A model generated the notes under the pieces. The model worked only from the letters and a program-made list of their open reading frames with translations. It ran no database searches and was not told the origin of the DNA. The position numbers and the translations under genes were made by a program. Positions 15,963-57,168 of a DNA stretch of 64,000 bases are shown here, piece by piece. Source of the DNA: a virus; the IMG/VR virus record IMGVR_UViG_3300050013_000165, positions 1-64,000 of that record; one strand, given 5' to 3'. How positions within the stretch are numbered: the first letter of the stretch is position 1; each line of letters starts with the position of its first letter.

Positions 15963-16544
15963 ATGGCTGCAAAGAACATCAATACACCACAGGCTCTGAA
16001 GCGTCGAATACGAGAGCAAACAATTGTTGACGACAACGGCTGTTGGATTTTCCAAGGAGCCAAAGATCGAGCAGGGTATGGGCGCTTCTATATGGGGCTC
16101 GGGCAGACTCGACGCACTCATCGCCTCACTTATGAATTGTGGGTAGGGCCAATTCCTGAAGGATTAGAGCTAGACCATCTTTGTAATACTCCGGCTTGTT
16201 GTCGTCCATCACATTTAGAACCAGTTACCGGATTAGAAAATAGGCAACGGGGGACAAAACGTCGAAAGCGATGCGGGCGCGGACATTATTACTCAAAGCG
16301 AAATACCTACATTACGCCGCAAGGTGTTCGAATGTGTCGAGAATGTCGTCGAATCCACGGAAGGATCAATGACGCCAAACGACGTCCTTCTCATCTTCCA
16401 AAGCGAATTTCTCCTAATCATTGTTTTCGTGGGCATCTTTTGACTGAAGAGAACACCTATCGCATTGATGGGGAACGTCGGTGTCGAAAATGCAGTGCCG
16501 ACCGGCAAAGAGGTTACCGCCAAGCGAAGAAAGAAGTTGCATGA
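15963..16544 (+). CDS. HNH homing endonuclease
   Basis: GCWIFQG...GYG...HRLTYE...GPIPEGLELDHLC...HLEPVT..EN plus two CxRGH...CxxC modules. Confidence 0.9.
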   Translation: MAAKNINTPQALKRRIREQTIVDDNGCWIFQGAKDRAGYGRFYMGLGQTRRTHRLTYELWVGPIPEGLELDHLCNTPACCRPSHLEPVTGLENRQRGTKRRKRCGRGHYYSKRNTYITPQGVRMCRECRRIHGRINDAKRRPSHLPKRISPNHCFRGHLLTEENTYRIDGERRCRKCSADRQRGYRQAKKEVA

Positions 16545-17206
16545 AGATTGTCATTGGATTTCCTGTGAAGGATAGAGCTTGGGTTCTCCCACAGATGCTT
16601 CAAGCGCTCGAACAGCAAGACGTGACCTTCGAAGTCGTGGCGCTCTATACGGCGTCGGAAGACGATACGGAGCAAATCCTCAAAGACCACGGCGTCGAGA
16701 TTCACTATGACGAGAGCCCCGGCAGACCGCGGCACAAGATCGATGGGCACAACTGGGGGACACTCGATCAGTTCGAGTACATGGCGACACTGCGTAATCG
16801 CCTCGTGGACATCTGCATTGAGAAAGATGCCGATTATTTCTTCTCCCTAGACAGCGACATCATCTTGCCGCTGAACGCATTAGAGAGCCTGCTCGCCTTC
16901 TCTCAAAGCCATCCTGGTGTTGTTTCACCGGCCGTCAATATGACCATCAATCAGACGGCGTGGAACATGATGCGCTGGAACGGATTGATCGGTGTCGCTG
17001 ATCGAACCGGCAGAGCTGCGATAGGTGAGACGGGGCAAGCCGACGTAATCATGGCCGCAATGTTGCTCGACCGATTAGGGATGACAGCGCGCTGGCGACC
17101 AAATCCCAATGGTGAAGACATGGGTTTCTGCCATGATTGCGAAGAGAAGGGAGTCCCTAGATGGTGGGTTCGAGAGATCGTGTGTGACCATCTTATGTTC
17201 AGATAA
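16541..17206 (+). CDS. GT-A (family 2-like) glycosyltransferase
   Basis: IGFPVKDR, RNRL, FSLDSD (DxD), GED. Confidence 0.85.
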   Translation: MKIVIGFPVKDRAWVLPQMLQALEQQDVTFEVVALYTASEDDTEQILKDHGVEIHYDESPGRPRHKIDGHNWGTLDQFEYMATLRNRLVDICIEKDADYFFSLDSDIILPLNALESLLAFSQSHPGVVSPAVNMTINQTAWNMMRWNGLIGVADRTGRAAIGETGQADVIMAAMLLDRLGMTARWRPNPNGEDMGFCHDCEEKGVPRWWVREIVCDHLMFR

Positions 17207-17625
17207 TGGCTGCTCCATACACACCCGAACTGTTTTGGGCCAAAGTAGTTAAGACCGAAACATGTTGGATTTGGCAAGGAAATAGTGACAATGGTCGGGG
17301 TTACTTTTCGATCATGTGGGCTCAAAAACGACGTTACGTGCATCGCGTAGCATGGGAGTTGGTCAATGGTCCCATTCCAGACGGATTACAAATTGACCAT
17401 TTATGCAGAAACAAGCGCTGTGTCAATCCCACTCACCTCGAACCCGTTACAGGACGCATCAACAAATTGCGTGGAAATACAATCACTCGGAGAAATGCGG
17501 AGGTGACACATTGCGTTCGAGGCCATCCTTACGACAAAGAAAACACCATTGTGGGGACTACGCCCCTTGGAACTCCTCGGCGAGCTTGTCGGAAGTGTCG
17601 AAAGCTTTATCGGATGTTTCGTTGA
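17206..17625 (+). CDS. HNH homing endonuclease
   Basis: CWIWQG...HRVAWE..NGPIPDGLQIDHLCRNKRCVNPTHLEPVT. Confidence 0.92.
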   Translation: MAAPYTPELFWAKVVKTETCWIWQGNSDNGRGYFSIMWAQKRRYVHRVAWELVNGPIPDGLQIDHLCRNKRCVNPTHLEPVTGRINKLRGNTITRRNAEVTHCVRGHPYDKENTIVGTTPLGTPRRACRKCRKLYRMFR

Positions 17626-18595
17626 GCTGTTGCTCGATCCAGGTGTAAAGCATTGCGAGTCCGTATTCGAGAGAGACTTCCGGTTCCCATCCGCAGACTT
17701 CTTTGGCGAGAGAAATGTCCGCATTGCGTGCATCTACACCGATTGCTCCATCGACATAGCGGCGACTCAAACGAACACCGCCAATCTGTTCGACTATTGA
17801 AACAAGATCATCAACGGTGACCGAACGGTCGCTTCCGATGTTTACCGGCTTTGAGTAATCGGATTCCATCAAGGCGATGGTTCCTCGAACGCAATCCTCC
17901 ATGTGAAGGTAACTGCGGAGCTGCTTGCCGGTCCCCCAAATCTCGATCTCATGGTTCCCTGTCTTGACGGCCGTTGCTACTTTGCGGCACATCGCTGCCG
18001 GAGCCTTCTCCTTGCCGTCGTTCCACGTTGAGTGCTCGCCGAAGACGTTGTGGTATCGAGCGATGCGGACTTCGAGTCCTTGCTCTTCGGCGTAATGCTT
18101 CATTAGCTCTTCCATGTAGAGCTTCGAGAATCCGTAGCCTTCCTCGGGCTGTGCAGGCCATGCCATGTCTTCTGACATTTGCCAATCGTTTGACTGACCA
18201 GAACCACCAACCATGTACTTGGTGTTTTGTAGATTTGTGTTGTAAACACAAGCGCTCGACGAAAAGAAGACCCGTGGTACTCCGGCTTTGACTGCTTCCC
18301 GAAGGATCGCTATGCCAATTTCAATGCTCTCGGCACACGCCACTTTGTGGGTGGTGATGTAACCGATGCCGCCCATGTTCTCGGCAAGATCGTAGATGGC
18401 ATCAGCTCCTCGAAACGCCCCCGAACCGCCAACTTTGGTGCAGTCGAGTTGCACGTTCTGTGCCTGATTGTGTAATTGCCACCATTCGTTCTTTGGCTTG
18501 ATGTCGATGGCTCGAACTTCGTTTCCTCGGACCAATAGCTCCCTAACCAAATGTCCGCCAATGGCACCACCGGCCCCGCAAACAACGATCTTCAT
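17558..18595 (-). CDS. GDP-mannose 3,5-epimerase-like NAD-dependent epimerase
   Basis: GAGGAIG, LAENMGGIGYI, SSSACVY, YGFSK, EKAPAAMCRK match the GME signature. Confidence 0.9.
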   Translation of the reverse strand: MKIVVCGAGGAIGGHLVRELLVRGNEVRAIDIKPKNEWWQLHNQAQNVQLDCTKVGGSGAFRGADAIYDLAENMGGIGYITTHKVACAESIEIGIAILREAVKAGVPRVFFSSSACVYNTNLQNTKYMVGGSGQSNDWQMSEDMAWPAQPEEGYGFSKLYMEELMKHYAEEQGLEVRIARYHNVFGEHSTWNDGKEKAPAAMCRKVATAVKTGNHEIEIWGTGKQLRSYLHMEDCVRGTIALMESDYSKPVNIGSDRSVTVDDLVSIVEQIGGVRLSRRYVDGAIGVDARNADISLAKEVCGWEPEVSLEYGLAMLYTWIEQQLNETSDKAFDTSDKLAEEFQGA

Positions 18596-18681
18596 TAGAG
18601 GTTCCCTCCGAGTCGGAATTGAATTGAGATCGACGGTAGCTGGCAAGTAGAAAGGGGTCATAGTCAATTTCGGGAGATCAA

Positions 18682-19254
18682 ATGTCGTTCGCCGAGGAGT
18701 ATTTGAACGAGACCCGTGCGATTATCGATCAGCTCGATTACGAGCAAATCGAAGCAATCGCTCAGGGTATTGCCGGAGTTAGACGGCTTTTCATCCTCGG
18801 TGTTGGGGGCTCAGCAGCAACGGCTTCACATGCAGTGAACGACTTCCGAAAGATTTGTGGTGTCGAGGCCTACGCACCAACTGACAACGTGGCCGAGCTA
18901 ACAGCGCGCACGAACGACAACGGTTGGGGGACAACTTTCGTTGACTGGCTAAAGGTTTCGAAGCTCGACAGTGACGACGGTGTTCTAATCCTCTCGGTCG
19001 GCGGCGGGGACAGCCACGGAGCTTCACCCAATCTTGCTGAAGCGATTAAGTACGCTCGCCGGACATTGGGAATCGAGAAGGGTATCGGAGCAACAATCTT
19101 TGGCATCGTTAGTCGCGACGGGGGGTACACGAAACGATTTGGTGATCGTGTGCTAGTAATCCCTCCGCTTTACGAGAACCGGATTACACCTCACACGGAA
19201 GGATTGTGTTCAGTGATCTTGCACTTAATCGTTTCTCATCCGGCACTCTCATGA
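18682..19254 (+). CDS. gmhA: sedoheptulose-7-phosphate isomerase (SIS domain)
   Basis: GVGGSAATASHAVNDFRK, ELTARTND, SPNL, TPHTEG. Confidence 0.88.
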   Translation: MSFAEEYLNETRAIIDQLDYEQIEAIAQGIAGVRRLFILGVGGSAATASHAVNDFRKICGVEAYAPTDNVAELTARTNDNGWGTTFVDWLKVSKLDSDDGVLILSVGGGDSHGASPNLAEAIKYARRTLGIEKGIGATIFGIVSRDGGYTKRFGDRVLVIPPLYENRITPHTEGLCSVILHLIVSHPALS

Positions 19255-19940
19255 AGCTCTTTTGCGATGGTGCCGATTTGCGCTCAATGGAGCGTTATGC
19301 CGAGGAAGATTTCATTCACGGATTCACCACGAATCCGACCTTGATGGCGAAAGAAGGTGTGCGACAGTACGAAACCTTCGCCAAGGAAGCGCTACGACTC
19401 ACGGTCAAACCGATCTCGTTCGAAGTACTGGCCGACGAACCTTCCGAGATGGTGCGCCAAGCTCGAATCATCGGTAGCTGGGGCGAAAACGTCTTCATCA
19501 AGATTCCAATCCAAACGACCAAAGGTCGCCACACGACTGAGATCATCTCGACGCTCAGTAGGGAAGGGTTCAGGATCAATGTCACCGCAGTGTTCACCGA
19601 GGCGCAGGTTTCTCGTGCAGCGACGGCACTCACTGGTGGCATCAATCGAGGGATCATTTCGGTGTTCGCCGGACGAATTGCCGACACTGGCGTTGATCCA
19701 ATAAGGACGATACGTTACGCACGAGACTGGGCAGGCAGATGGTCCGAAGTTCTTTGGGCGAGCCCGCGTGCAGTGTGGGACTACTACGCAGCCGATTATG
19801 CGGGCGCACAGATCATCACCATGACACCAGAGCTGATCGAGAAGATGCGAGCAAGTGCGGGCAAAGACCTCACTCTGTTTTCGCTTGAAACGGTGGTGAT
19901 GTTTCACAACGACGCCAAGGCTTCTGGTCTCTCGCTTTGA
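19251..19940 (+). CDS. tal: transaldolase (short TalC/FSA type)
   Basis: LFCDGAD, GFTTNPTLM, SFEV, IKIP, INVTAVF, SVFAGRIADTG, LWASPR. Confidence 0.92.
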   Translation: MKLFCDGADLRSMERYAEEDFIHGFTTNPTLMAKEGVRQYETFAKEALRLTVKPISFEVLADEPSEMVRQARIIGSWGENVFIKIPIQTTKGRHTTEIISTLSREGFRINVTAVFTEAQVSRAATALTGGINRGIISVFAGRIADTGVDPIRTIRYARDWAGRWSEVLWASPRAVWDYYAADYAGAQIITMTPELIEKMRASAGKDLTLFSLETVVMFHNDAKASGLSL

Positions 19941-20890
19941 TCATTACTCAAACCCCGCTGCGCCTCACACTCGGCGGCGGGGGCACCGACGACCCAACCT
20001 TCGTAAAGGAACACGGAGGCTTTGCACTAACGGTGGCAATCGACAAACACGTCTTCGTGGGCATTCACAAAATGCTCGATCCTGGCTATCGTTTGAAATA
20101 TGCCAAGGAAGAGATCGTCAACGAACTCGATGAGATCAAGCACCCGATGTTTCGGGAAGCGCTCCGCTATTACCAAGTTCCTCCTGGCGTTGAGCTTGTC
20201 TCTCTTGCTGACATTCATTCTGGTAGTGGTCTTGGTTCTTCTGCTGCCTTCACAGTCAGTCTTTGTCGTGCTCTGGCTGCTTTCACGGGTCGCCACCCCA
20301 TTCACCGCTATGAGATAGCTCGGGTTGCTGCACACATCGAGCTAGAAGTTCTTGGTCGCGGTGGAGGTGTGCAAGATCACTGGGCGTGTGCGCTCGGGGA
20401 CCTTCAGGCGTTGACGTTTCGTCGTGACGGCTCAGTTGATTACGACTACATCCCAATGCAAGGACACGTCGTCAAAGAGCTTCAAGCAGGGCTCTGCATG
20501 TTCCTGGTCGGCTACTCACGCGATGCCGACACGGTGCTCGTCGAACAGTCTCAGGACGGGCTCGCCGAGATCAAAGCTCGGGGGTATGAGGCCTACGAAC
20601 TTCTCTGTCAAGGTGAGCTTCGGACGTGGGCCGAGAACATGAATTACCACTGGGAGGCCAAGAAGAAGCGCTCGAATTTGATCTCGTCAAACGAGGTCGA
20701 TGAGATGTACGCTTACGGTCTCGCCAATGGAGCCATAGGCGGCAAGCTCGTCGGTGCCGGAGGTGGGGGCTTCCTAATGTTCTATACCGAGGAGCCCGAG
20801 CGATTGTCGTCGGCGTTCCGAGGCAAACTTCAAGAGGTTCAATTTGAGTTCACAGGAGATGGAACCGAAACCATCACACGCACTCCCTAA
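19937..20890 (+). CDS. hddA: GHMP kinase, heptose-7-phosphate 1-kinase
   Basis: TPLRLTLGGGGTD, GSGLGSS, QD, GGKLVGAGGGGF. Confidence 0.9.
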   Translation: MIITQTPLRLTLGGGGTDDPTFVKEHGGFALTVAIDKHVFVGIHKMLDPGYRLKYAKEEIVNELDEIKHPMFREALRYYQVPPGVELVSLADIHSGSGLGSSAAFTVSLCRALAAFTGRHPIHRYEIARVAAHIELEVLGRGGGVQDHWACALGDLQALTFRRDGSVDYDYIPMQGHVVKELQAGLCMFLVGYSRDADTVLVEQSQDGLAEIKARGYEAYELLCQGELRTWAENMNYHWEAKKKRSNLISSNEVDEMYAYGLANGAIGGKLVGAGGGGFLMFYTEEPERLSSAFRGKLQEVQFEFTGDGTETITRTP

Positions 20891-21419
20891 GCAGTTGCAG
20901 TGTGTGGTGCTGGCCGGTGGGTATGGCACTCGATTGGCTCCCCTCACCGACAACTGCCCGAAGATCATGGTGCCTGTTCTTGGGCGTCCCTTTGCCTATT
21001 GGCAGCTTGATCTCATGAAGAAGTGGGGCGTCACTGAGGTTGTCTATTGCGTCAATCATCTCGCTCACAAAGTGAGAGAGCTGGGCGACGATTACAAAGG
21101 CATCCGCTTGCTCTACAGCGAAGAGAAGAACCGACCACCAGATGCATTGTGGAAGTTTGCTGTTCGCAACGCACTCCCGCTTCTCGATGAAGAGTTCTTG
21201 TTGATGTACGGCGACTCTTATTTGCCGGACGTGGACATTGACTCAGTGAAAGCGTTTGGTCCTTCACTCATCACGTCGTGGCAAGGGATCGACTACGGGT
21301 TGTGGCACTGCCATCGAAGCGAGTTCGCATTCGCCGAGCTTCAAATCATCGAGCGCTTTCACGAGATCGGTTCTCTCGAAGGGCTCGTCGAGCTAGAGGC
21401 GTATCTACAAAACCGGTAA
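20859..21419 (+). CDS. hddC: sugar-1-phosphate nucleotidyltransferase (HddC-like, compact)
   Basis: LAGGYGTRL...PKIMVPV.GRPF, YGDSY, FHEIGS. Confidence 0.8.
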   Translation: MEPKPSHALPKQLQCVVLAGGYGTRLAPLTDNCPKIMVPVLGRPFAYWQLDLMKKWGVTEVVYCVNHLAHKVRELGDDYKGIRLLYSEEKNRPPDALWKFAVRNALPLLDEEFLLMYGDSYLPDVDIDSVKAFGPSLITSWQGIDYGLWHCHRSEFAFAELQIIERFHEIGSLEGLVELEAYLQNR

Positions 21420-22169
21420 TGGTGGGCGGCGCATGAAGTCGATGTTGCACTCGTTCGAGCCCTCAGGGTCGATGCGCCAGTTCGCCAACGGGTTGTCGCT
21501 CTTGTAGTACATCAGCGTTTCAGTGATGAACTTGAAGCGTGGCCCAGCGAGTTCGAGCGCAGTCAAGGTGAACTGCACATCACAGCCCTTCTCGTACCAC
21601 GCACCTATCTTCGGTCCACCGTCGTAATGAAACTGATCCACGGGGACGTTGTTGAAGATGCGACCTTTCATCGTTCGAAGGTGGTTGAAGTACACAGCGC
21701 CGAACGCTCGATAGGAGCGGTTCGCTATCACTTCCGGCGGGTACTCGCGTGCCGGTGGGCAACCAGGCTCTGGTGGGTCCGGTAGGTAGCTCCCATACGT
21801 CGCCAGCGTGTCGTCGGCGTAATAGTCGAGCAAGTGCGCAAGAACATCGGGGTGTGCAAAGCGATCACCATCAAGGTCAAGAAAGATGATGATGTCGTCA
21901 TCGGCAGGCTCCATCTTCTGGATGCCTTCCCAACGCATTTGGGTGTCGAGCTTCCACGGAGCTTCATCGTTTCCGTTGAAGATGATTTTGTTGGGGTAAT
22001 CAAGAAGGGCGCACTCTATTTGGTGTCCAGCGGGATCAGTCGCCCAGTCTTCGGTCTCATAGGAGATGCAGAGTTGCCAGTCCTTGACAGTCTGCATTCC
22101 AACGGAGGAGATCGTTTGGTGAATCTGTTGTGGTGTGCACTTCCAACCGTTGCTGATGATTTTGAACAT
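21405..22169 (-). CDS. GT-A glycosyltransferase (paralog A)
   Basis: LDLDGDRFAH..VL, TYGSY, HLRTMK, LELAG, Y..DNP. Confidence 0.75.
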   Translation of the reverse strand: MFKIISNGWKCTPQQIHQTISSVGMQTVKDWQLCISYETEDWATDPAGHQIECALLDYPNKIIFNGNDEAPWKLDTQMRWEGIQKMEPADDDIIIFLDLDGDRFAHPDVLAHLLDYYADDTLATYGSYLPDPPEPGCPPAREYPPEVIANRSYRAFGAVYFNHLRTMKGRIFNNVPVDQFHYDGGPKIGAWYEKGCDVQFTLTALELAGPRFKFITETLMYYKSDNPLANWRIDPEGSNECNIDFMRRPPLPVL

Positions 22170-22978
22170 TAGAACTTCTTCTTTAGTGGCGGCTTTGCCC
22201 TGAAGTTGTCATCGCACTCTTTGTTCTCGTTGTTATTCATGCGCCACGCCGAGAACGGATTGAGTGAGTTGTAGACCATCAGCACCTCTTCGATGTAGCG
22301 ATGGCGGTAGCCGACCATTTCGAGCGCGGGGATCATCGAGGTGACGTCATCGACTTTCTTATACCACTCTCCCTTTTTGTGTGGGTACTTTTCAGCGCCG
22401 TTGCCGAGAACGTCTTCGGACCACTGGAACTGATCGAGTGGGATTGCGTTGAAGACCTCGAACTTCATGGTGCGCAAATCAGCAGCACGATAGGGGGCAG
22501 AGCGAAACGAGCGATCCACAATGACCTTGTTGTCGTAGGGAAGGGCTCGCAGTGGAGAACCGACAGGTGGCACGTTCTCGTAGTTCCCATACGTCAAGAG
22601 CGGAAAGCCGTCAGCGTAAGCGTCGTGCACTCTGTCCAACACTTGGTGGTGTGCAAACCGATCCCCGTCAAGGTTGAGCCAAATGATGACGTCTTCGTCG
22701 TCGGGCTCCATCGCCTGAATTGCCTCATAGCGAGCCTTCGTACCGTAAATGAAGTTCTCTTGGCCGGTGCGAATTGTGTACCTGAATTGCGTGTCGCGAT
22801 CAGATGCCGCTTTGATCCACCATTTGAGTCGGTAATCGACAGAGAAGGTTTCTTCTTCGTTCTCTGACTCGTAGGAGATCATGACCTCAAAGTCACGACG
22901 ACTCTGCAAATCGATTGAGTTGAGGGTCCACATCATGGAGTCGAAACAGCGCCACCCGGCGCACACAATCTTAAACAC
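22169..22978 (-). CDS. GT-A glycosyltransferase (paralog B)
   Basis: LNLDGDRFAH..VL, TYGNY, LRTMK, YNSLNP; homologous to the neighbour. Confidence 0.75.
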   Translation of the reverse strand: MFKIVCAGWRCFDSMMWTLNSIDLQSRRDFEVMISYESENEEETFSVDYRLKWWIKAASDRDTQFRYTIRTGQENFIYGTKARYEAIQAMEPDDEDVIIWLNLDGDRFAHHQVLDRVHDAYADGFPLLTYGNYENVPPVGSPLRALPYDNKVIVDRSFRSAPYRAADLRTMKFEVFNAIPLDQFQWSEDVLGNGAEKYPHKKGEWYKKVDDVTSMIPALEMVGYRHRYIEEVLMVYNSLNPFSAWRMNNNENKECDDNFRAKPPLKKKF

Positions 22979-26159: not shown

Positions 26160-27660
26160 AGAAGGGGTTGGAATTCCAGACTTCCACTTCGCCGCCTTGT
26201 CCGAACTCTTTTGTCATCCAGCACGCAAGGGCCAAGGAGTCGAGGTAATCGTCGTGAGCGTTCTTCTCGTTCTTTGGTGCGCCGACCAAAAGGTAGCGCC
26301 CTTTGTATTCCTTTTCAACATTCAAAATCTGCTGGATAAATCGTTGGTGGGTCATTAGACGTTGAGTGCGAGGATGTGCAGGCCAGCCGAGCAATTTGCG
26401 TTGGATTAGCTGCATTAAATGCTGCCAGCGCTCGGACTGATCAATTGGATTCATAGCGCAGGCAACTACTTCGATGCTCGGGAGGAGGGTCTGAAGGCGC
26501 TCGGCCACCGGGCCTCCCATGCCCTGAGCATCCACGGCAATCCGCATGACGTAATACCGCGACACGAACTCACAAATCTGTCGGTACTGGGACTCCCAAT
26601 TCTCACCGTGCAGTTCGAGCCAGTTCAAGATGCGATGGTTGAAGAGCCCAAACTCATCGGGGTGTTCCCAGTCCACCCAAATCGCCGTGCACACCGTGGA
26701 GTCGTGCTTCGCTGCGACGTCAATGCCAATCACGATTGGTGATTCGGTGTAATAGGGAACAGTCATCATGTCGTAATCACTTAGTTCTTCGATGATGTCT
26801 TCGGTGACGAACATGCCTCTGTCGAGTAGCCATTTGAGGCAGTACGACATTTGGAACTCGTCCGAGTCTTCGCCGAGCCGTTCTTTTTCCTTCTTGATTG
26901 CCTGTGCGTAGAACTTTGACTCCTTTGCTGCGCGCCGCCAGTCATAGGCGAAATGGTTCTTCTTGCCATTAGACGGTGAGCGTCGCTTATTTCGTTGGAT
27001 CGCTTCGAGGAAGTCAGATGTGTGCGTAGTCGGTGTCCCAATCTTCACAATGGTGCCGGACACAGCAGTCATCATCGGGTGAATACGACGGCGCACTGTT
27101 TCAGAGTCAGCGTCTTGCGCCTCGTCGATAATGATTAGGTGATACGTCGTGGACTCGATCTTCGCCTTAGGGAATGCAGTCTGCTTCCGGCAGAACGAAT
27201 GGTTGTGTCGCATTTGAATGAGGTTCCCGTTCGGGTGAGCCTCATCGTCGATTTCAGGATCAGCGAGAAACTGCTTGGCGTGCTCTGACGTTAGATGCAT
27301 TTCAATGCGACTGAAGAGCGTATCGGCCTGGAAATCAATCGGGGCGAACAGACCAATCATTACACCGTATTTGAATTTCTGAAGCACCTCATCGGTGGGG
27401 AACATCTTGGCGAGTTGGGGCAGGATTACCATCGCCGTCGAAACGACACAGCTAATGGTCTCGGTCTTGCCGCCCTGACGTGTTGCCTCGACAGTGATTT
27501 CGTCGGCGTCGCCAAAGATGAGCGAGAAGAAAATGCGATCTGCCATTTCGAGCTGGTAACTGCGCAGGCTGATTTCACACAGCGATTCGAGCAAAATCAA
27601 ACACTTGTCAGTCAACCATTGCGCCCAGGCGATGCGAGGATTAACTGTTTTTGTTGGCAC
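26131..27660 (-). CDS. terL: terminase large subunit
   Basis: RQGGKTE Walker A, IIIDEAQ Walker B, GTP coupling motif, GIDVA and HDDYLDS nuclease motifs. Confidence 0.95.
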   Translation of the reverse strand: MPTKTVNPRIAWAQWLTDKCLILLESLCEISLRSYQLEMADRIFFSLIFGDADEITVEATRQGGKTETISCVVSTAMVILPQLAKMFPTDEVLQKFKYGVMIGLFAPIDFQADTLFSRIEMHLTSEHAKQFLADPEIDDEAHPNGNLIQMRHNHSFCRKQTAFPKAKIESTTYHLIIIDEAQDADSETVRRRIHPMMTAVSGTIVKIGTPTTHTSDFLEAIQRNKRRSPSNGKKNHFAYDWRRAAKESKFYAQAIKKEKERLGEDSDEFQMSYCLKWLLDRGMFVTEDIIEELSDYDMMTVPYYTESPIVIGIDVAAKHDSTVCTAIWVDWEHPDEFGLFNHRILNWLELHGENWESQYRQICEFVSRYYVMRIAVDAQGMGGPVAERLQTLLPSIEVVACAMNPIDQSERWQHLMQLIQRKLLGWPAHPRTQRLMTHQRFIQQILNVEKEYKGRYLLVGAPKNEKNAHDDYLDSLALACWMTKEFGQGGEVEVWNSNPFYERSGVGRR

Positions 27661-39171: not shown

Positions 39172-39244
39172 CTCCCCCAGGAGGACTTGAACCTCCGACC
39201 CTCGGATTAACAATCCGGTGCTCTGCCGACTGAGCTACAGGGGA
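39172..39244 (-). tRNA. tRNA-Asn (GTT), CCA not encoded
   Basis: Cloverleaf TCCCCTG/TGGGGGA, D arm GCTC/GAGC, anticodon loop TTGTTAA, T arm GGAGG-TTCAAGT-CCTCC. Confidence 0.93.
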
Positions 39245-44777: not shown

Positions 44778-44880
44778 TGGAAGACATTCGAGATCGAGAC
44801 TGGTGTGCTTGTGTTGATCCACTTCTCAATCAGTGCAAGGAGCGTCACTGTCCGTGGAAGAGAAAGCGACTTGAAGAAGA

Positions 44881-45612
44881 ATGAGACTTTTTGCTTTTAC
44901 GGTTGGAAAGAACGAGGAGAGTCGATACCTGTCTTCCATGATTCGCAATCTTGATGGCTTTGTCGATGATCACTTTTTTTACGACGATCAATCGACAGAT
45001 CGAACATTGGATATTGCTGACGTTTTGGGTTGTGTCGCTATCCGGCGTCCTGATGGGGTGGCCTCTTTTTCAGAAGATGAGGGAATGTTTCGCGAAGCCG
45101 CTTGGAAGTCTTTTGAGCTTCATATGCATCCCCGGCTTGGTGATTGGGTTCTCGTAATTGACTGTGACGAGTTTCTTTCCATCAAAGGTCAGGGTGTCGA
45201 GTTCAACGACATCATGCGTGGTGGAACGGCCGTCAATCTGAGTATCCCCGAAGTTTTCGGCTTTGATACAGATGGGTGCCCTCTTGTTCGCACGGATCGA
45301 AAGTGGGGAACAATTTTTGCTCCCCGACTTTTCGCCTATCAAGAAAATGGTGGCTTCGCTCGGGGCAAGGTTGGTGTTCCTGCTGTTCCGAGTTACGTCA
45401 TGGCGACCCCGAATCGGGTCTCGACGGACGATGTCGTTTTGATGCACTTGGGGTACGCACGGTTTGAAGATCAAGAGATCAAATACGCTCGATACAACGG
45501 CGTCGATGGTCATTCTGACGAACACGTTCAGTCAATTGTGTCACCGGACAAGACGCTTGTTCGGTGCGAAGAGTGGAAGTGCAGGATTCCGTGGAAACAG
45601 TTGATGTCATAG
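44881..45612 (+). CDS. GT2-like glycosyltransferase
   Basis: KNEE.RYL, DDQSTD.T, IDCDE, HLGY. Confidence 0.88.
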   Translation: MRLFAFTVGKNEESRYLSSMIRNLDGFVDDHFFYDDQSTDRTLDIADVLGCVAIRRPDGVASFSEDEGMFREAAWKSFELHMHPRLGDWVLVIDCDEFLSIKGQGVEFNDIMRGGTAVNLSIPEVFGFDTDGCPLVRTDRKWGTIFAPRLFAYQENGGFARGKVGVPAVPSYVMATPNRVSTDDVVLMHLGYARFEDQEIKYARYNGVDGHSDEHVQSIVSPDKTLVRCEEWKCRIPWKQLMS

Positions 45613-46223
45613 TTCCAACCTGTGGCGATATCGATGTATGGAAGCCGTTGGCCGAGCGTGCTCAACAGTCGGCCTTCAACCAAGTTGTCAAAGCGAATCG
45701 AGTGATCTGGTCACACAAGGCGACGGTTTCCGAAGCTCGGAACTTCGGAGCTTCACTCAGCACCGGAGATTGGCTGATCTTTCTTGACGCCGACGATGAA
45801 CTTGACCCACGGTATATCGAGCACATGATCGCGGGGAGTGGAGATATACGGCAACCTTCGACGCTCGGGGTCGTTAATGGCGTCGAGGATGATTTTCCAG
45901 TTCTTATCGAGCAGAAGAGCCTCATCATAGGTAACTATCTGATAATCGGCTCGATGGTCCGGCGGAAGTTGTTCTTGTCGGTAGGGGGTTTCCGTGACTT
46001 CCCGATTCTTGAAGATTGGGATTTATTTATTCGCCTCGCACTGGCTGGGGCTAAAATTGGCAAATGCCCTGATGCCATTTATCGGGTGCATGTACTTCCC
46101 GATAGTCGAAATAAACAGGGAGACTCAATTCATGGCAGCGTCTACAGTCAAATCCAAAGGGAACACGAAGCCGCTTGGTTCGCAAAGTTCCACCGTGACG
46201 AGTCATCCTTGTACGTTGTGTAA
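45591..46223 (+). CDS. GT2 glycosyltransferase
   Basis: ARNFGA, FLDADDEL, GGF, EDWDL. Confidence 0.9.
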   Translation: METVDVIVPTCGDIDVWKPLAERAQQSAFNQVVKANRVIWSHKATVSEARNFGASLSTGDWLIFLDADDELDPRYIEHMIAGSGDIRQPSTLGVVNGVEDDFPVLIEQKSLIIGNYLIIGSMVRRKLFLSVGGFRDFPILEDWDLFIRLALAGAKIGKCPDAIYRVHVLPDSRNKQGDSIHGSVYSQIQREHEAAWFAKFHRDESSLYVV

Positions 46224-46608
46224 GCGACCAATTAAGAGCAAATACAAGCGTTGCAGTAACTGTCGTCAAGGTCAACGAGAGGATTATTACGCCAATCACG
46301 ACCGCTTATTGAAGAAAATGCGTGAGCGTGATCCAGAAGGACGATTTGCTTACAACATAAAGCGTTGGTACGGAATCACGCTTGACGAGTACAACTCTTT
46401 GTTGAAAGAGCAGGGCGGGGGGTGCGCCATTTGCCATTCGACAGAACCGGCAGGCAAAAGAGTCAAGCGGTTTTCTGTTGACCATGACCACCGGACCGGA
46501 AAAGTTCGAGGTCTGCTTTGTAATCTTTGCAATCACTTGCTTGGCTGTGCTCGGGATGATTTGCAGCTTTTAGTAAATGCCGTTGCGTATTTGGAGCGGG
46601 TGGCATGA
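46132..46608 (+). CDS. endonuclease VII-family homing endonuclease
   Basis: YGITLDEY...QGGGCAIC...VDHDHRTGKVRGLLCNLCN. Confidence 0.92.
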   Translation: MAASTVKSKGNTKPLGSQSSTVTSHPCTLCKRPIKSKYKRCSNCRQGQREDYYANHDRLLKKMRERDPEGRFAYNIKRWYGITLDEYNSLLKEQGGGCAICHSTEPAGKRVKRFSVDHDHRTGKVRGLLCNLCNHLLGCARDDLQLLVNAVAYLERVA

Positions 46609-46889
46609 CCAATAAAATTTATCTAAATACTAACGAAATTATCTTTCTAAACGCCGACCATCAATTAGTTGATGGAAGTGCTGTTCATCCTCTGATGTGT
46701 GAACAGACAATGGAGCACATGAGAGAAGTCCACGGTGTTACAGACGGTTATACCGAAGGTGCAATTTTGGACTTGTCGTGGTGGCTGCAACAACACTTGA
46801 AACTTCACCCACCAATTACTCGGAAGTGGCCTGACCTTAATGAGCCTGGGTATGGTCGTCCAATAAAAATGAAACCTGTAAAACGATGA
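46605..46889 (+). CDS. hypothetical passenger protein
   Basis: ATGA-coupled to the endonuclease; AT-rich. Confidence 0.6.
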   Translation: MTNKIYLNTNEIIFLNADHQLVDGSAVHPLMCEQTMEHMREVHGVTDGYTEGAILDLSWWLQQHLKLHPPITRKWPDLNEPGYGRPIKMKPVKR

Positions 46890-47071
46890 GTTTGTGGATT
46901 AGGTGCAAAATGGCCGGGGCTGTAATTTCGGCAGTACCCGAAGCCATCTATCGCGTTCATGTGAACGAGGGTAGTCGCAACAAACAGCCGCCAGAGTTGC
47001 ACGGTCAGACCTATATGCAGATTCAGCAGGAACACCAAATGGAATACATGCGAATGTTCGGTCGAACATGA
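46886..47071 (+). pseudogene. displaced duplicate C-terminus of the 45591-46223 GT
   Basis: 28 of 48 residues identical by manual alignment (AIYRVHV, SRNKQ, HG..Y.QIQ.EH). Confidence 0.85.
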
Positions 47072-47787
47072 TCTCGTTCCTGATCCCTTATCTCCCAAAT
47101 GGTGACGAATACCGAGAACGTGCGTGCAAGTACATTTTGGGGGCGTTGGCAATCGATTGGCATGAGCCAGATGCCGAAATCATCATTGGAGGAATCGAGC
47201 CGTTTAATCGGTCGGCAGCGCGCAACCAGGCGGCAAAGCGTGCCGATGGGGACATTCTCGTTTTTGTCGATGCCGACTCTTTTGTTCCAAAGCATCAAAT
47301 TCGTGAAGCCCTTTCTCTGGCCGAGGAACGAGGGTGGGCATTTCCTTACGATCACTATTGCTCTATGACGGAGATGGGGACCGAGAACTTCATTGCTGGG
47401 GCTGCTCTTCCTGATCCATTGAGCTGGGGAACTGACATGTTTGATCGTGACTATTACGAGTTCATTTTTCCCTCGAAGGACACTCCTGAGCCCGCAGTCG
47501 GCGGGTGTGTTGTTGTGACTAGAGCTGCTTTCGAAACGGTAGGCGGATACGACGAGCGCTTCATTGGCTGGGGAGAAGAGGATCGAGCCTTCATGCTCGC
47601 ATTAGACACGCTCGTGAATGCAGAGCATCGGGTGAGCGGCAACATCTTTCACCTATGGCACGAGCACCCCGAAGAGGAGTGTTTCGCTCAACCGAACTTC
47701 AGTGATAACCGGAAGCTCTGTAATCGCTACCGGGAAGCTTGCGGCAACCTTCAAATGATGCGGGAGTTGATCGCCGAACGAAACTGA
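47068..47787 (+). CDS. GT2/GT7C-like glycosyltransferase
   Basis: FNRSAARN, VDAD, GGYDERFIGWGEED, HLWH. Confidence 0.92.
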   Translation: MISFLIPYLPNGDEYRERACKYILGALAIDWHEPDAEIIIGGIEPFNRSAARNQAAKRADGDILVFVDADSFVPKHQIREALSLAEERGWAFPYDHYCSMTEMGTENFIAGAALPDPLSWGTDMFDRDYYEFIFPSKDTPEPAVGGCVVVTRAAFETVGGYDERFIGWGEEDRAFMLALDTLVNAEHRVSGNIFHLWHEHPEEECFAQPNFSDNRKLCNRYREACGNLQMMRELIAERN

Positions 47788-50103: not shown

Positions 50104-50109
50104 TTGGAG

Positions 50110-50592: not shown

Positions 50593-50596
50593 ATAA

Positions 50597-51551: not shown

Positions 51552-53309
51552 ATGGCGATTAGCTTCGTTTCTAATTCTTACCGAGCGTCGTCATCAGACC
51601 TCACGATTGCGATTAGTCCGCTCGGGCTCGTTGAGCTTGCCGACGAAGAGTTCGAGGTTCACGGGCCACGCCTCAATCGGTACGCATCCAACTGGGCCTT
51701 CTACCTTGGGCACCACTGGTCGTATCGGCGCGAGATCGGCGAGCCCCAACTCACGTTCAACTGGTGTAAGACGTTCAGTGATTACCTCACGAACTTCGCA
51801 CTCACCAACGGAGTCAATTTCTCGTCCCCCGAAGCGACGTCGGCGATTGTGCCGGAGCTGTTGCGCCAGGTTTGGGAAGAGCACCAGCCAATGGGCAAGA
51901 TGGCTGTGATGTGGGAGATCATGCAGCAAGGCTCGGTCTCCGGCGACTCGTTTGTCAAGGTTGCATTTGAAGAGGCCTACGACGACCCGGCGGGCAACTT
52001 CCACCCACCGAAGATTCGCATCCTTCCGCTCAACAGTGCCTTCTGTTTTCCTGAGTACCACCCCCACGACATGTCGCGCCTAATCCGCTTCAAGATGAAG
52101 TACCGCTTTTGGGGAACGGCGCTCGAAGGCACTCGACAGGTGTTCTCATATACCGAGCTTTGGACTGAAGACGCCTTCCAGTCGTTCATCAATGATGAGC
52201 TAATCGAGAGCCAAGAAAACCCGCTCGGGGTAATCCCGTTCATCCATGTCTCGAACACGAAGGTGCCGTCGTCGCCGTGGGGCTTGTCTGACATTCAAGA
52301 CGTCACGGACCTCAACCGGCAGTACAACGAGACGGCCACATTGATTACTGACATCGTGAACTACTACGCATCGCCGGTCACGATCATTACCGGCGCGAAA
52401 TCGAACAACCTCGAACGCGGCCCCCGCAAGGTATGGGCAATTCCGAATAAGGATGCTCGTGTTGCCAACCTCGAAATTAACTCACAGCTCGATGGACCTT
52501 TGAAGTTCCTCGAAACGCTGAAAGAGAAGATGCACGAGATTGTCAACATTCCGATGAATGCTTTTGGGCAGGAGTTGCAGATCAGCAACACCTCGGGCGT
52601 CGCACTTCAAATCACGTTGCTGCCATTGATGCAGAAGTTCCGACAGAAGTCGATTCAGTACGAGTCGGGGCTTGTTCGAGTTAATGAGCTAATCATCCGT
52701 GTCGCTTCGGTCTATATGCCGGAGCTTTTGCAGTTCGATCCATCTCGGGATGTCTTGCCTGAACCCGGTCAGCTTTCCGTGCTCGATCCGCTTGATCCTT
52801 TGACGTTTCGAAATAGTGTCGAATTTGCCAACCCGATGCCCATTGACAAGACGTTGGCTCTTCAGGAAATCCAAATGGAGATGGCACTCGGGCTCTTGTC
52901 GAAGCGTGGCGCTCTTCGCCGTCTTGGCGAGGCTTACCCCGCAGAAAAGCTCGAAGAGCTGTATAACGAATTGCACCTCGACCAACTCGAACAAGGTGCG
53001 CTCGATTTGCAAAGCGCACAGCTTCAGGTACTCATTCCGTTTCTCACCGGCATTTCCCCGACAACTGGGGAGCCGGTTGGAGAGGAAGGAGGGTCCGCAT
53101 CTACGACCAGTGCCGGTCCTGCTGTTCAGTCTGCCGGTGGCCCAGGTGTCAACACGGCGACTGCAACACAACCAGGCTCGGCGATGCCAAACATTTTCGA
53201 CAATCCAGAGACGAAGGATTTGCTCACTCGGCTCTCCACACTGGCGGCGGGAACCAAAGTTCCGCAAGTTCGGAATCCACTTCATGATCCAGAGGACGAC
53301 AATTCCTGA
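51552..53309 (+). CDS. portal protein
   Basis: 585 aa; FYLGHHW, GDSFVKV, NPLGVIPFIH, WGLSDI, SNTSGVAL; precedes scaffold and capsid. Confidence 0.92.
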   Translation: MAISFVSNSYRASSSDLTIAISPLGLVELADEEFEVHGPRLNRYASNWAFYLGHHWSYRREIGEPQLTFNWCKTFSDYLTNFALTNGVNFSSPEATSAIVPELLRQVWEEHQPMGKMAVMWEIMQQGSVSGDSFVKVAFEEAYDDPAGNFHPPKIRILPLNSAFCFPEYHPHDMSRLIRFKMKYRFWGTALEGTRQVFSYTELWTEDAFQSFINDELIESQENPLGVIPFIHVSNTKVPSSPWGLSDIQDVTDLNRQYNETATLITDIVNYYASPVTIITGAKSNNLERGPRKVWAIPNKDARVANLEINSQLDGPLKFLETLKEKMHEIVNIPMNAFGQELQISNTSGVALQITLLPLMQKFRQKSIQYESGLVRVNELIIRVASVYMPELLQFDPSRDVLPEPGQLSVLDPLDPLTFRNSVEFANPMPIDKTLALQEIQMEMALGLLSKRGALRRLGEAYPAEKLEELYNELHLDQLEQGALDLQSAQLQVLIPFLTGISPTTGEPVGEEGGSASTTSAGPAVQSAGGPGVNTATATQPGSAMPNIFDNPETKDLLTRLSTLAAGTKVPQVRNPLHDPEDDNS

Positions 53310-53869
53310 TGGCATTGACGTCAGTTGAAAGACGACGGCTGTACGTCCAACGCCATCCCGAACGTGTTGCTGCTTCCAAGAAGTCCTATGGCGCAACCGA
53401 ACGAGGCAAGACGACAAAGAGGAATTACAACCGTCGATATTACGAAGAGCATGGCGAAGAAATTCGCTCCCAGGCGAGAGATTGGTGTAAACAAAATCTT
53501 GATCGCAAGCGGCAACTGAACCATGTTTGGCGTGATGCCAATAGAGAGCATTACAACGACACCCAGCGAAGTTGGTATAAGACCAATCGAGAACAAAACC
53601 TATTGCAGCGCCGTGCTTACGACGCTCTGGTTGCAGCCCAAAGGCGTGCTCGAAAGCGTGGGGCTCAAATTGGTGCGGTCACTATCGAGCTTCTTCAGGA
53701 GAAGTGGAATTATTGGTTTGGGCGTTGCTGGATGTGCGGAAAACAAGCTGAAGCTTGGGATCACGTAAAACCTCTAGCTAAGGGCGGTGCTCATTGCCTC
53801 GCAAACCTTCGTCCGGCATGCAAACCATGCAACAGCCGAAAACGAGATCGTTGGCCGTTTCGTAACTGA
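53309..53869 (+). CDS. HNH homing endonuclease
   Basis: CWMCG....WDHVKPLAKGGAH...NLRPACKPCNSRK. Confidence 0.92.
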   Translation: MALTSVERRRLYVQRHPERVAASKKSYGATERGKTTKRNYNRRYYEEHGEEIRSQARDWCKQNLDRKRQLNHVWRDANREHYNDTQRSWYKTNREQNLLQRRAYDALVAAQRRARKRGAQIGAVTIELLQEKWNYWFGRCWMCGKQAEAWDHVKPLAKGGAHCLANLRPACKPCNSRKRDRWPFRN

Positions 53870-54888: not shown

Positions 54889-55881
54889 ATGGCCTCTGCA
54901 ATTACCGGCTCGCCTTATCTGGCCGCTTCGCCGACTGGATATGCGGGCGCAAACTCAACGCTTGGGCAGGCAATCCAGACGATTTGGTCCAAGGAAATCC
55001 TGTTCCAGGCAATGCCCATTCTGCGCTTCGAGCAGTTTGCGGTCAAAAAGACGGAGCTTGGTGTTCAGCCTGGTCTGACCATCAACTTCATGCGATACAA
55101 CAACCTGCCAAATGCTTCGCAGTTGGTGGAAGGTGTTCGCATGCAGACCGTCGCTTTGACGGCGAGCCAGTTCTCGATCACGGTTGCAGAACAGGGCTTC
55201 GCTGTGTCGGTCACGGAGCTGTTGCTCAATGCCTCGTTCGACGACGTCATGGCTTCGGCCTCCCGTCTGCTCGGACGAAACATGGCGCAGTACCTCGACT
55301 ACAGCGCTCGGAACACACTGCTTTTGGCGTCGTCAGTGATCTTCGGATACAACTACCTCGCCACCGACAACCCGCGGACCACGCAGTCGCCGTATGACCA
55401 CGGCTCCGCTGCAACGTCCACCAACGGGTTGACGGGGAACTACTACTTCACCCCGGCTTTGGTGAAGGATGCAGTATTGACCCTTGCTTCGAAGAACGTT
55501 CCTCGCCTCGGTGAGACCTACGTCTGCTTCGTGGCACCGACCCAGTCCCGAGAGCTTCGAGACTGCCCTGAGTTCATCGAGGTTACGAAGTACGCCGCCC
55601 CCGGCAACTTCGCCCTTGGCGAGATCGGTCGGCTTTGGGACTGCGTGTTCATTGAGACCACGCAGGTCAACCAAGCGCAGACCACGGCCGCTACTCCGGC
55701 CACGTACTACCAGGCGATCTTCATCGGCGACAATGCTTTCGGGCATGCGATTTCGTTGCCGGTCGAGCTTCGTGACGGTGGCGTTCTCGACTTCGGTCGA
55801 GAGCACGCTCTGGCATGGTACGCGATTTGGGGTCTTGGATTGATTACAGATTGGTCGGTCGTGATCGCAAATACCAACTAG
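54889..55881 (+). CDS. major capsid protein (N4-gp56-like)
   Basis: IWSKEILFQAMPILRFEQFAVKKTELG, GEIGR, DFGREHALAWY; AAGGAG RBS. Confidence 0.93.
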   Translation: MASAITGSPYLAASPTGYAGANSTLGQAIQTIWSKEILFQAMPILRFEQFAVKKTELGVQPGLTINFMRYNNLPNASQLVEGVRMQTVALTASQFSITVAEQGFAVSVTELLLNASFDDVMASASRLLGRNMAQYLDYSARNTLLLASSVIFGYNYLATDNPRTTQSPYDHGSAATSTNGLTGNYYFTPALVKDAVLTLASKNVPRLGETYVCFVAPTQSRELRDCPEFIEVTKYAAPGNFALGEIGRLWDCVFIETTQVNQAQTTAATPATYYQAIFIGDNAFGHAISLPVELRDGGVLDFGREHALAWYAIWGLGLITDWSVVIANTN

Positions 55882-55915
55882 TTGAACTCCCCAGTAGTTG
55901 TGTTAAACTGCTGGG

Positions 55916-56659
55916 ATGACAATCAGAACGTGTGCTCTGTGCCCAGCACAGAAAGCTCCATACAAACATCCAGAAGACCCTGAGCTTCGTATCTGTCAGG
56001 CGTGCAAGCGTCGATTAGAACGACAAGCTCGGGGTCTTTTGCTGCCAGGACCAAAGCCTGATCCAACACGACCAAGGTCACGATATGGAACACAACGGGA
56101 AGGAAGCCCAAATCGAATATCACGTCGTCAATTTGCGACTGAAACTCGCTGTGCCAACAATCACCTGTTTACCAATGAGAGCACGTATTGGCGCAAAGAC
56201 CCAAATGATGGAGTAGAGCGTCGAATCTGCCGAATTTGTTTGCGAGCAGCACAGCGCAAATCAAAAGGGCTTCCAGCAATTCCAGATGACACTCCGTTTG
56301 GACCACGCAATAAAGACAAGACGCATTGTCCACAAAATCATGAGTACACGCCAGAGAACACTTACACCTATAAGAGCGGTCTTCGTCGATGCCGAAAATG
56401 TATGCGAGCGCAGCAAATACGACACGATTATGGGATTGAGCCGGAGCAGTTTGACTTTTTTATCGAGAAGCAAGGAAATGCTTGTGCGATTTGTGAGCGG
56501 TCGTTTGAGGTGGAAACACCGCACGTTGACCACGATCACGCTGACGGGCATGTACGAGGCATTCTCTGTCGTCCTTGTAACTCGGGCCTCGGGTTCTTTG
56601 AGGATTCCCTGACGATGCTCAGGCGGGCCGTTCGCTACTTGGATAGGATTTCAGCATGA
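55916..56659 (+). CDS. endonuclease VII-family homing endonuclease with Zn modules
   Basis: YGI...QGNACAIC...HVDHDHADGHVRGILCRPCNSGLG. Confidence 0.9.
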   Translation: MTIRTCALCPAQKAPYKHPEDPELRICQACKRRLERQARGLLLPGPKPDPTRPRSRYGTQREGSPNRISRRQFATETRCANNHLFTNESTYWRKDPNDGVERRICRICLRAAQRKSKGLPAIPDDTPFGPRNKDKTHCPQNHEYTPENTYTYKSGLRRCRKCMRAQQIRHDYGIEPEQFDFFIEKQGNACAICERSFEVETPHVDHDHADGHVRGILCRPCNSGLGFFEDSLTMLRRAVRYLDRISA

Positions 56660-57078
56660 GCAGGATTTCACCGCAGGCTCAACGACTAAAGGACGCCGCC
56701 GCCAATGTCACCGGCCACCCAAAAAGCTTTTTTACGGTTCGCACCGAGAAGAACCGTTATGGCGAATACGGTGATGCTCATCTCGATTTGAACATCCGAA
56801 ATATCGTTCGAAAAGGAAATGGGCTGACGCATAGAGATGTTCACGAGAATCTTGCGGATCACGCCGATGATCTTGCAAAGCAAGGCTTGACCGTGAATGT
56901 GATTCACTCTTTGGACGGTCGCCGGAGCACCCATGTCTCGTCTACTCACAACCCTCGGCAAGAGGTGGCGGAATATCAAAATGGCAAGTGGAACACCCGT
57001 TCTCTGTTTCACGACCGTCGTCAATTGAGCGCCCAGGAACTTCGAACACTTCAAAAGCCGGATTCGGAGTGGAACTAA
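56656..57078 (+). CDS. hypothetical passenger protein
   Basis: ATGA-coupled to the endonuclease. Confidence 0.65.
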   Translation: MSRISPQAQRLKDAAANVTGHPKSFFTVRTEKNRYGEYGDAHLDLNIRNIVRKGNGLTHRDVHENLADHADDLAKQGLTVNVIHSLDGRRSTHVSSTHNPRQEVAEYQNGKWNTRSLFHDRRQLSAQELRTLQKPDSEWN

Positions 57079-57113
57079 CCGACTGGTCGGTGGTTGTGGC
57101 GAATACGAACTAA
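57078..57113 (+). pseudogene. orphan copy of the capsid gene 3' end (TDWSVVVANTN*)
   Basis: Matches MCP end TDWSVVIANTN* at 55846-55881 with mostly third-position differences. Confidence 0.9.
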
Positions 57114-57142
57114 CGTCTCCAATCGAGACGTCTGCAAGGCTG

Positions 57143-57168
57143 AGGCCCGCCCTTCGGGGCGGGTCTTT
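57143..57168 (+). terminator. intrinsic terminator
   Basis: AGGCCCGCCC-TTCG-GGGCGGGTCT-TT. Confidence 0.85.

Follow-up and report, generated by a model that had tools for sequence, protein, structure and literature searches.

Replacement of a gene's 3' end by an element carrying a homing endonuclease has previously been described in fungal mitochondria. Mobile open reading frame (mORF) gene hybrids are known for atp6 of Allomyces macrogynus and for atp6, atp9, cox2, and nad3 of Glomus sp. (PMC3630166). In Glomus sp., the inserted C-terminus is followed by the mORF and then by the native C-terminus, the two ends differ by largely synonymous changes, and in-phase variants exist; the nuclease of the Allomyces atp6 element is biochemically active (PMC3630166). 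C-terminal duplications of cob and atp6 have also been reported in Endoconidiophora (PMC6279837). Among phages, T4-like genomes support intronless homing by the free-standing seg and mob genes (reviewed in PMC2988022; for mobE, PMC2790892), and HNH genes inside introns are common (PMC7344957). According to the summary in PMC2988022, one-sided illegitimate double-strand break (DSB) repair occurs in T4 intron homing (Parker et al. 1999), and PMC6083498 presents F-CphI of cyanophage S-PM2 as the founding free-standing homing endonuclease with an Endonuclease VII (EndoVII) catalytic motif. Here we describe five loci in a BRock-like soil phage at which a nuclease gene adjoins a gene whose C-terminal codons appear again, differently spelled, behind the nuclease gene or as its own last codons. 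Four lie within bases 1 to 64,000 (hereafter the window) of IMG/VR virus record IMGVR_UViG_3300050013_000165, which is linear and 101,468 bp long (completeness estimate, 68%), and the fifth lies elsewhere in this genome.

These cassettes are probably free-standing homing endonucleases residing inside the 3' ends of genes, each bringing a foreign, functional end for the gene that it enters. The host genes encode three glycosyltransferases (GT1 to GT3, cases 1 to 3), the major capsid protein (MCP, case 4), and a tail protein (case 5), and the nucleases are EndoVII type in three cases and HNH_3 type in two (Table 1). Of the four cases in the window, cases 2, 3, and 4 are solid and case 1 is weak. 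In cases 2, 3, and 5, the substitute end contains the nuclease start codon. The original end persists either as a separate stump (60 codons for GT3 and 11 for MCP) or as the last 3 to 9 codons of the nuclease open reading frame (ORF), and the downstream copies keep the original stop together with its onward link, which is a start codon overlap or a terminator. The coordinates reported for the four window cases in a first-pass annotation of this DNA held on inspection of the sequence, as did the operon punctuation noted there at the downstream copy (GTGA in case 2, ATGA in case 3, and hairpins in case 4).

Syntenic relatives lack the nucleases and passenger ORFs at every comparable locus (MCP, GT operon, tail gene, and GT1). 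The GT operons of L084 to L089 are without both homing endonuclease genes (HEGs), and relative G001 is without the tail gene and GT1 nucleases. Furthermore, the ends or junctions of relatives correspond to the downstream copies at four loci (GT3, GT2, tail gene, and MCP). Direct locus searches of viral contigs with GT2, GT1, epimerase, and tail gene C-terminal domain queries returned no relatives; those of GT2, GT1, and the tail gene were reached via the flanks of the GT3 loci and through searches of the genomes behind earlier loci. The first-pass annotation had described the endonucleases as free-standing and the downstream copy as the original gene end. The former is borne out by Pfam assignments to EndoVII or HNH_3 and by the nuclease-free relatives, and the latter by the GT3, GT2, and MCP ends and junctions of relatives, which match the downstream position. 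In cases 2 to 4, these relatives are in keeping with its expectation that nuclease-free alleles would end in the downstream copy, while case 1 went unconfirmed. Neither of the two passenger ORFs (94 and 140 aa) is matched in Pfam or PHROGs. Because they are absent from the loci of all relatives, we consider them part of the inserts, as was originally suggested.

Table 1. Positions of the cassettes, their flanking features, and related nuclease loci (window coordinates unless stated otherwise)
Feature	Position	Strand	Remarks
Case 1: GT1, family-2 glycosyltransferase, host gene	16541-17206	+	Ends HLMFR-stop; TAA overlaps nuclease ATG by 1 nt
Case 1: HNH_3 endonuclease	17206-17625	+	Pfam HNH_3, E = 2e-18; ends MFR-stop
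Case 1: possible GT1-end remnant (3 codons + stop, MFR-stop)	17614-17625	+	Terminal nuclease codons; statistical match
Case 2: GT2, host gene	43574-44347	+	Substitute end IEHE-stop at 44333-44347; nuclease ATG inside the CAT GAG codons
Case 2: EndoVII-type HEG	44340-44777	+	PF02945, E = 2e-22; 8-nt overlap with GT2
Case 2: original GT2 end (4 codons + stop, IEHE-stop)	44763-44777	+	Last codons of nuclease ORF
Case 3: GT3, host gene	45591-46223	+	Substitute tail from ~46020 to 46223
Case 3: EndoVII-type HEG	46132-46608	+	PF02945, E = 1.6e-27; phrog endonuclease VII
Case 3: passenger ORF, 94 aa	46605-46889	+	No family match; ATGA overlap at each end; GC3 0.37
Case 3: remnant of original GT3 end	46886-47071	+	Homology from 46892 (LWIR...); frame still open
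Case 4: N4-gp56-type MCP, host gene	54889-55881	+	phrog major head protein; substitute end 55846-55881
Case 4: 10-bp hairpin	55890-55915	+	dG -17.6, z -3.8; between substitute MCP stop and HEG ATG
Case 4: EndoVII-type HEG	55916-56659	+	PF02945, E = 1e-21; long N-terminal Zn-finger-like region
Case 4: passenger ORF, 140 aa	56656-57078	+	No family match; stop abuts remnant
Case 4: remnant of original MCP end (TDWSVVVANTN-stop)	57078-57113	+	Outside any credible ORF
Case 4: two hairpins, original MCP terminator	57113-57171	+	Second GC-rich, then U-rich run; dG -36.9, z -5.6
Case 5: tail gene, 836 aa, host gene	Genome 74896-77406 (locus L110: 897-3912 for whole case)		Ends RAFTNVNEIG-stop
Case 5: HNH_3 gene	Genome 77393-77911		Ends KAFANVSEIG-stop; ATG inside upstream copy, 14-nt overlap
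Other nuclease genes (EndoVII, HNH_3 + AP2, HNH)	1819-2442, 27641-28042, 53309-53869, 61818-62297; genome 85109-85276	+, -, +, - (window genes)	No flanking duplicates
Survey locus L137	3330-3848		Shares ATVVK-stop; nuclease stop keeps TAATG overlap with next gene
Survey locus L038	2750-3391		Shares VETN-stop; MCP relative, the window's MCP site, different junction
Survey locus L142	3280-3827		6/10 last residues match; all last nine codons, stop included, differ
Survey locus L275	1840-2220		Shares YPSLDN-stop; 8/10 residues match

In case 3, the last 60 codons of GT3 are repeated at 46892-47071 with 30 of 60 amino acids identical (53% nucleotide identity; tblastn E = 2e-8 against the whole genome), and the 30 shared residues comprise 13 identical codons and 17 synonymous variants. 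The substitute tail runs ~8 aa beyond the usual end of relatives and stops in cassette DNA. The likely ATG of the nuclease and an AGGGAG motif ~10 nt upstream of it, if this start is the one used, lie within the substitute tail, and the two genes overlap out of frame by 92 nt. Stop/start overlaps then chain the nuclease to the passenger, the passenger to the stump, and the stump to the next glycosyltransferase (47068-47787), whose start is overlapped by the stump's stop as ATGA. The remnant is 48 to 58% identical at the amino acid level to the GT3 tails of relatives. Six syntenic contigs (L084 to L087, L089, and the more distant L088) have a full-length GT3 followed by neither nuclease nor passenger; in all of these except L088, GT3 and the following glycosyltransferase, which begins with ISFLIPY or similar, overlap stop to start (GTGA). 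The G+C content at third codon positions (GC3) was 0.58 for the GT3 core, 0.57 for the remnant, and 0.57 for the following GT4, compared with 0.46 for the substitute tail, 0.41 for the HEG, and 0.37 for the passenger. Thus, the upstream tail groups with the cassette and the remnant groups with the host genes.

These observations bear on the opposite polarity, in which the upstream end would be native and the downstream copy would have been imported with the nuclease. The two MCP copies of case 4 both belong to one sub-clade (TDWSVV(I/V)ANTN) and cannot be separated by similarity alone, as such a polarity would allow. However, the downstream copies are joined to the next native gene or terminator in the ancestral manner, the upstream GT3 tail extends past the end of every relative and contains the nuclease start codon, and GC3 places this tail with the cassette. 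A donor carrying a nuclease upstream of a gene tail would itself need explanation. We therefore consider the opposite polarity improbable.

Case 2 involves a much shorter repeat, as GT2 and the nuclease behind it both end in IEHE, encoded by ATT GAA CAT GAG TAA in GT2 and by ATC GAG CAC GAG TGA in the nuclease. Four of the five codons differ, with four synonymous and no non-synonymous differences. The nuclease stop overlaps (GTGA) a small ORF at 44774-44884, which in turn overlaps (ATGA) the glycosyltransferase starting at 44881; this 36-aa ORF has no Pfam or PHROGs match. The GT2 proteins of seven relatives end in HGI-x-x-E/D-stop, and the two closest of these have a stop that overlaps the start of the next gene; in relatives, GT2 and the next glycosyltransferase are adjacent, without a HEG. 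The four remaining EndoVII paralogs of the genome end in YL(E/D)(R/K) plus two to five residues and lack EHE. Based on the ends of GT2 in relatives and of the paralogous nucleases, the terminal EHE of the nuclease belongs to the glycosyltransferase.

In case 4, 10 of the 11 terminal MCP residues are matched in the remnant, with seven synonymous and one non-synonymous codon differences. The MCP is 71% identical at the amino acid level to the MCP of Streptomyces phage BRock and its kin and 92 to 93% identical to those of uncultivated IMG/VR relatives (L004 to L006); none more than 92% identical was present in a collection of 5.8 billion proteins. Relatives' MCPs end in TDWSVV(V/I)(A/G)NTN-stop followed by a terminator hairpin at the equivalent place, and no HEG follows the MCP gene in L004 to L006 or in BRock-like phages. 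The hairpins behind the remnant were missed by a consensus terminator scanner and were revealed by folding. The hairpin in front of the nuclease aligns with the post-MCP terminator hairpin of relatives; as it ends at the nuclease ATG, it would occlude the ribosome-binding region. Such burial recalls the hairpin control of T4 endonuclease translation. HEGs that are 34 to 43% identical lie directly behind the MCP gene in L018, L026, L038, L044, and L066. MCP remnants were found twice in all, with 11 codons in the window and four in L038, and their junctions differ. No other long duplicate of the MCP end was detected when the MCP loci of 82 relatives were scanned in 12-aa windows, the 140-aa passenger had no tblastn match among 83 MCP loci, and sliding MCP identity against L004 to L006 did not reveal a conversion tract boundary.

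Case 5 was found outside the window by a genome-wide scan for shared C-terminal suffixes. Nine of 11 codons, stop included, are spelled differently in the tail gene and the HNH_3 gene, corresponding to six synonymous and three non-synonymous differences. The tail gene ortholog of G001 ends in SAFANAGLNG and is followed by a membrane protein gene and no nuclease.

The mostly synonymous differences between the copies suggest that they diverged as working gene ends in separate genomes. An alternative is that a staggered cut or replication slippage copied the gene end at insertion and that the copies then diverged in place, with no foreign donor. Direct repeats around an insert are indeed the classic signature of target-site duplication. 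However, the copies range from 12 to 180 nt, are only 53 to 75% identical, and differ mostly at synonymous positions, whereas selection does not maintain the host protein sequence in a dead stump or in a tail that has become part of a nuclease, and decay in place should lack a synonymous bias. The composition of the substitute tail is also unlike that of the host gene. Local duplication is accordingly very improbable.

Splicing, by which the downstream copy would serve as the true last exon or extein of a group I intron- or intein-containing gene, was also considered. Intron-borne HNH genes are common in phages, as noted above, and relative L007 has an ORF-less group I intron at codon ~34 of its MCP gene. 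However, Rfam searches detected no group I intron anywhere in the window at gathering score, nor within or beside any cassette when the threshold was relaxed to E <= 1 and the filters were made permissive, while the same search recovered the L007 intron (E = 7e-9) as a positive control. The upstream genes are themselves complete, with stops that give the length seen in relatives. Hint and intein domains were not detected, and in cases 2, 3, and 5 the nuclease is read in a different frame from the host gene. As no intron RNA surrounds the nuclease ORFs, the cassettes fall outside the group I intron-encoded class, and a spliced origin is scarcely credible. Invasion without splicing, as the first-pass annotation had proposed, is in agreement with these results. 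Overall, target-site duplication, introns or inteins, and reverse polarity were rejected on the grounds given above.

The L007 insert itself comprises ~258 nt (4094-4317) within the MCP gene of this 89%-identical relative, and its score against the group I intron model is below gathering. Database MCPs of 288 to 295 aa (P0048 to P0051, P0058, and P0089) may represent the second exon of genes split by introns. A tRNA gene (39172-39244, minus strand) was the sole Rfam match at gathering score within the window.

Case 1 is the weakest, as GT1 and the HNH_3 nuclease share only three residues (ATG TTC AGA TAA in GT1 and ATG TTT CGT TGA in the nuclease). GC3 was 0.44 for the nuclease and 0.64 for GT1. 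A 50%-identical GT1 ortholog in G001 ends in RVRKMT and is followed by no nuclease. The short matches could be coincidental, with only the two long duplications being real; MFR is certainly open to this reading, and IEHE possibly so. Three or four residues is little, an unrelated pair of neighbouring ORFs in the genome shares a 3-aa suffix (LPE), and the only GT1 relative ends differently. However, terminal suffixes of at least 3 aa have a background frequency of ~3e-4 per pair, suffixes of at least 4 aa occurred in none of ~11,000 control pairs, and for IEHE the HGIxxE/D ends of relatives and the YLERxx ends of paralogs show that the residues belong to the glycosyltransferase. All five nucleases in the genome that abut an upstream gene on the same strand show a terminal match. 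Coincidence is thus unlikely as an explanation of the short matches taken together.

The suffix frequencies were obtained from crude ORF calls over the whole 101-kb genome, counting exact C-terminal suffixes of at least 3 aa. Such suffixes were shared by 4 of 514 same-strand pairs less than 2 kb apart and by 6 of 19,187 other pairs, so that ~0.16 matches were expected among neighbours where four were observed (Poisson P ~2e-5). Three of these four pairs include a nuclease gene, and the remaining one is the LPE pair.

Judged from the sequences, the terminal-match pattern recurs beyond this genome at a measurable background frequency. We surveyed 80 EndoVII-type and 80 HNH_3 loci from viral contigs, of which 149 had an abutting upstream ORF on the same strand. 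An in-frame terminal match was present in four of these (~3%), in each of which the nuclease ORF ends in the last 4 to 9 residues of the upstream gene with other codons used (L038, L137, L142, and L275). Suffixes of at least 4 aa were found in 0 of 4,970 and 0 of 6,006 mismatched locus pairs. This pilot of the controlled scan of phage genomes suggested in the first-pass annotation yielded an excess. Its further proposal of a general strategy fared less evenly: the fifth case and the survey support recurrence, but an evolved strategy is not favoured over a by-product of repair, given the MCP sites that lack a remnant.

Several observations weigh against our interpretation. The closest relatives are only ~80% identical at the nucleotide level (92% amino acid identity) for MCP and 55 to 60% identical at the amino acid level for the glycosyltransferases. 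As no relative exceeds ~80% nucleotide identity, the foreign origin of the upstream ends is argued from composition and the logic of the junctions, and GC3 favours it in case 3 only. Of six genomes with a nuclease at the MCP site, four lack a remnant and carry a clean intergenic nuclease, which indicates that the remnant is not an obligatory part of the element. These remnant-free sites and the differing junctions are better explained by sporadic, independent joining than by a single fixed element. Likewise, tblastn of the upstream tails against downstream DNA at the 149 other nuclease loci uncovered no stand-alone long remnant. For case 1, G001 is the only relative and lacks the sugar-nucleotide module that comes next in the window; the comparison gave no confirmation, and this is the sole case that is plausibly coincidental.

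A possible route to the proposed gene-end substitution begins with the nuclease cutting a nuclease-free allele near the gene end. The left end of the break would invade a nuclease-bearing, co-infecting genome by homologous crossover within the gene, and synthesis would proceed through the donor gene end, the nuclease, and any passenger. The new strand would then be joined to the right side of the break non-homologously or by microhomology. With such a join, the recipient's gene end beyond the break would stay in place. Once formed, a cassette would have homology on both sides and could home precisely. Since the upstream gene is unbroken and complete, synonymous differences would be what shields it from the cassette's own nuclease, and the divergence of the copies would resist recombination that deletes the cassette, while the retained native stop would preserve coupling of the downstream gene.

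It is possible, although doubtful, that terminus-substituting cassettes constitute a regular, heritable third niche for phage homing endonucleases within coding sequences, in addition to introns and inteins. They might be favoured in tightly coupled operons without intergenic space, where the native stump would preserve translational coupling. The frequency of five in five in this genome versus ~3% elsewhere suggests a lineage-specific cause, which could lie in the way this phage repairs breaks or in a line of nucleases adapted to gene ends.

The 101-kb genome (53% G+C) encodes 11 HNH-superfamily genes, comprising five of the EndoVII type (PF02945; E = 1e-21 to 2e-27), four of the HNH_3 type (PF13392; E = 3e-9 to 2e-18), and two classical HNH genes. 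The nuclease proteins matched nuclease and DNA-binding families only. In an alignment of the five EndoVII paralogs, the catalytic D/H/H/N columns are unvaried, and the PF02945 match is confined to the C-terminal 80 to 90 residues in all five, behind an N-terminal DNA-binding region. Duplicated gene starts (5' ends) were looked for around the other nucleases of the genome, and none were found. A Zn-finger-like repeat (H-C-x-x-G/N-H ... N-T-Y ... C-R-x-C) is common to 16270-16500, 17500-17600, and 56120-56420 of the window, corresponding to C-terminal portions of the two HNH_3 genes on either side of GT1 and to an N-terminal portion of the case 4 nuclease. Its presence in HNH_3 and EndoVII genes suggests that DNA-binding modules are common to different nuclease families.

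Further features were observed around GT1. A second HNH_3 gene (15963-16544) leads into GT1 by an ATGA overlap and is missing from G001; neither gene starts nor gene ends were found duplicated in its surroundings. Downstream of GT1, a convergent NAD-dependent epimerase ORF (17558-18667, minus strand) has a tail of 21 to 22 codons antisense to the 3' end of the case 1 nuclease (last 68 nt). Since Pfam homology of the epimerase ends near the HNH_3 stop codon, the insertion may have replaced the epimerase stop and tail. Two tandem paralogs at 21405-22978 (minus strand), ~40% identical at both ends, have no assigned function; in G001, which lacks the sugar-nucleotide module (17558-21400), a homolog is convergent with GT1.

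If our interpretation is correct, essential, tightly packed phage genes (capsid, tail, and a glycosylation operon) are open to invasion by selfish nucleases, with the gene left intact and no need for an intron or intein. The last residues of many phage proteins annotated as HNH or endonuclease VII may then derive from the neighbouring gene, and displaced gene ends may account for short orphan ORFs behind such nuclease genes. Core genes, the MCP gene among them, could have foreign 3' ends, which would matter for phylogenies and for the mapping of mosaic boundaries. A displaced stump would also mark the rough point of break joining, and nuclease target sites might thereby be predicted from sequence only.

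Among the described systems, the mORF hybrids are the most similar. Both consist of a gene core, a substitute C-terminus, an endonuclease ORF, and a native remnant (weakly so in case 1), the inserted and native ends differ largely by synonymous changes, the insert is in some instances in phase with its host gene, and several genes per genome are affected (four in Glomus, five here). However, the mORF hybrids are mitochondrial and carry LAGLIDADG or GIY-YIG nucleases, whereas the host here is a double-stranded DNA phage with EndoVII and HNH_3 nucleases. In addition, the native remnant is read here as the nuclease's own C-terminus in three cases and overlaps the next gene, and two cassettes carry an extra ORF without known function. 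The elements in this phage work like mORF hybrids but lie outside those lineages.

The seg and mob genes of T4-like phages are also free-standing nucleases beside conserved genes, are sporadic in relatives, and are expected to have a nuclease-bearing allele protected by target sequence differences, with co-conversion of flanking markers. There, however, both flanks recombine homologously and the nuclease lies between intact genes with no displaced recipient end. Illegitimate repair in T4, as summarised in the review cited above, mends a cut with homology on one side and microhomology at the junction; it is proposed there as an invasion route to new sites and would yield exactly the architecture seen here. 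It was described in a laboratory system with an intron-borne nuclease. F-CphI has a C-terminal EndoVII motif behind an N-terminal DNA-binding region and is likewise free-standing beside a conserved target gene. To our knowledge, F-CphI adjoins psbA without a duplicated gene end.

The first-pass annotation was justified in its caution about novelty, as the architecture is established in fungal mitochondria (PMC3630166, PMC6279837). No description of it in phages was found in the literature searched (the T4 mobile-element review, Barth et al. 2023, a Skunavirus HNH survey, Certrevirus CB7, and a Xanthomonas phage comparison), and no phage papers were among the searched publications mentioning Allomyces atp6. 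The main distinction of the present elements is the occurrence of five instances in one genome together with a measurable background frequency elsewhere. Overall, nucleases that substitute gene ends are known from fungal mitochondria, and the elements described here differ from them in their phage setting, their nuclease families, the frequent fusion of stumps to nucleases, and their passengers.

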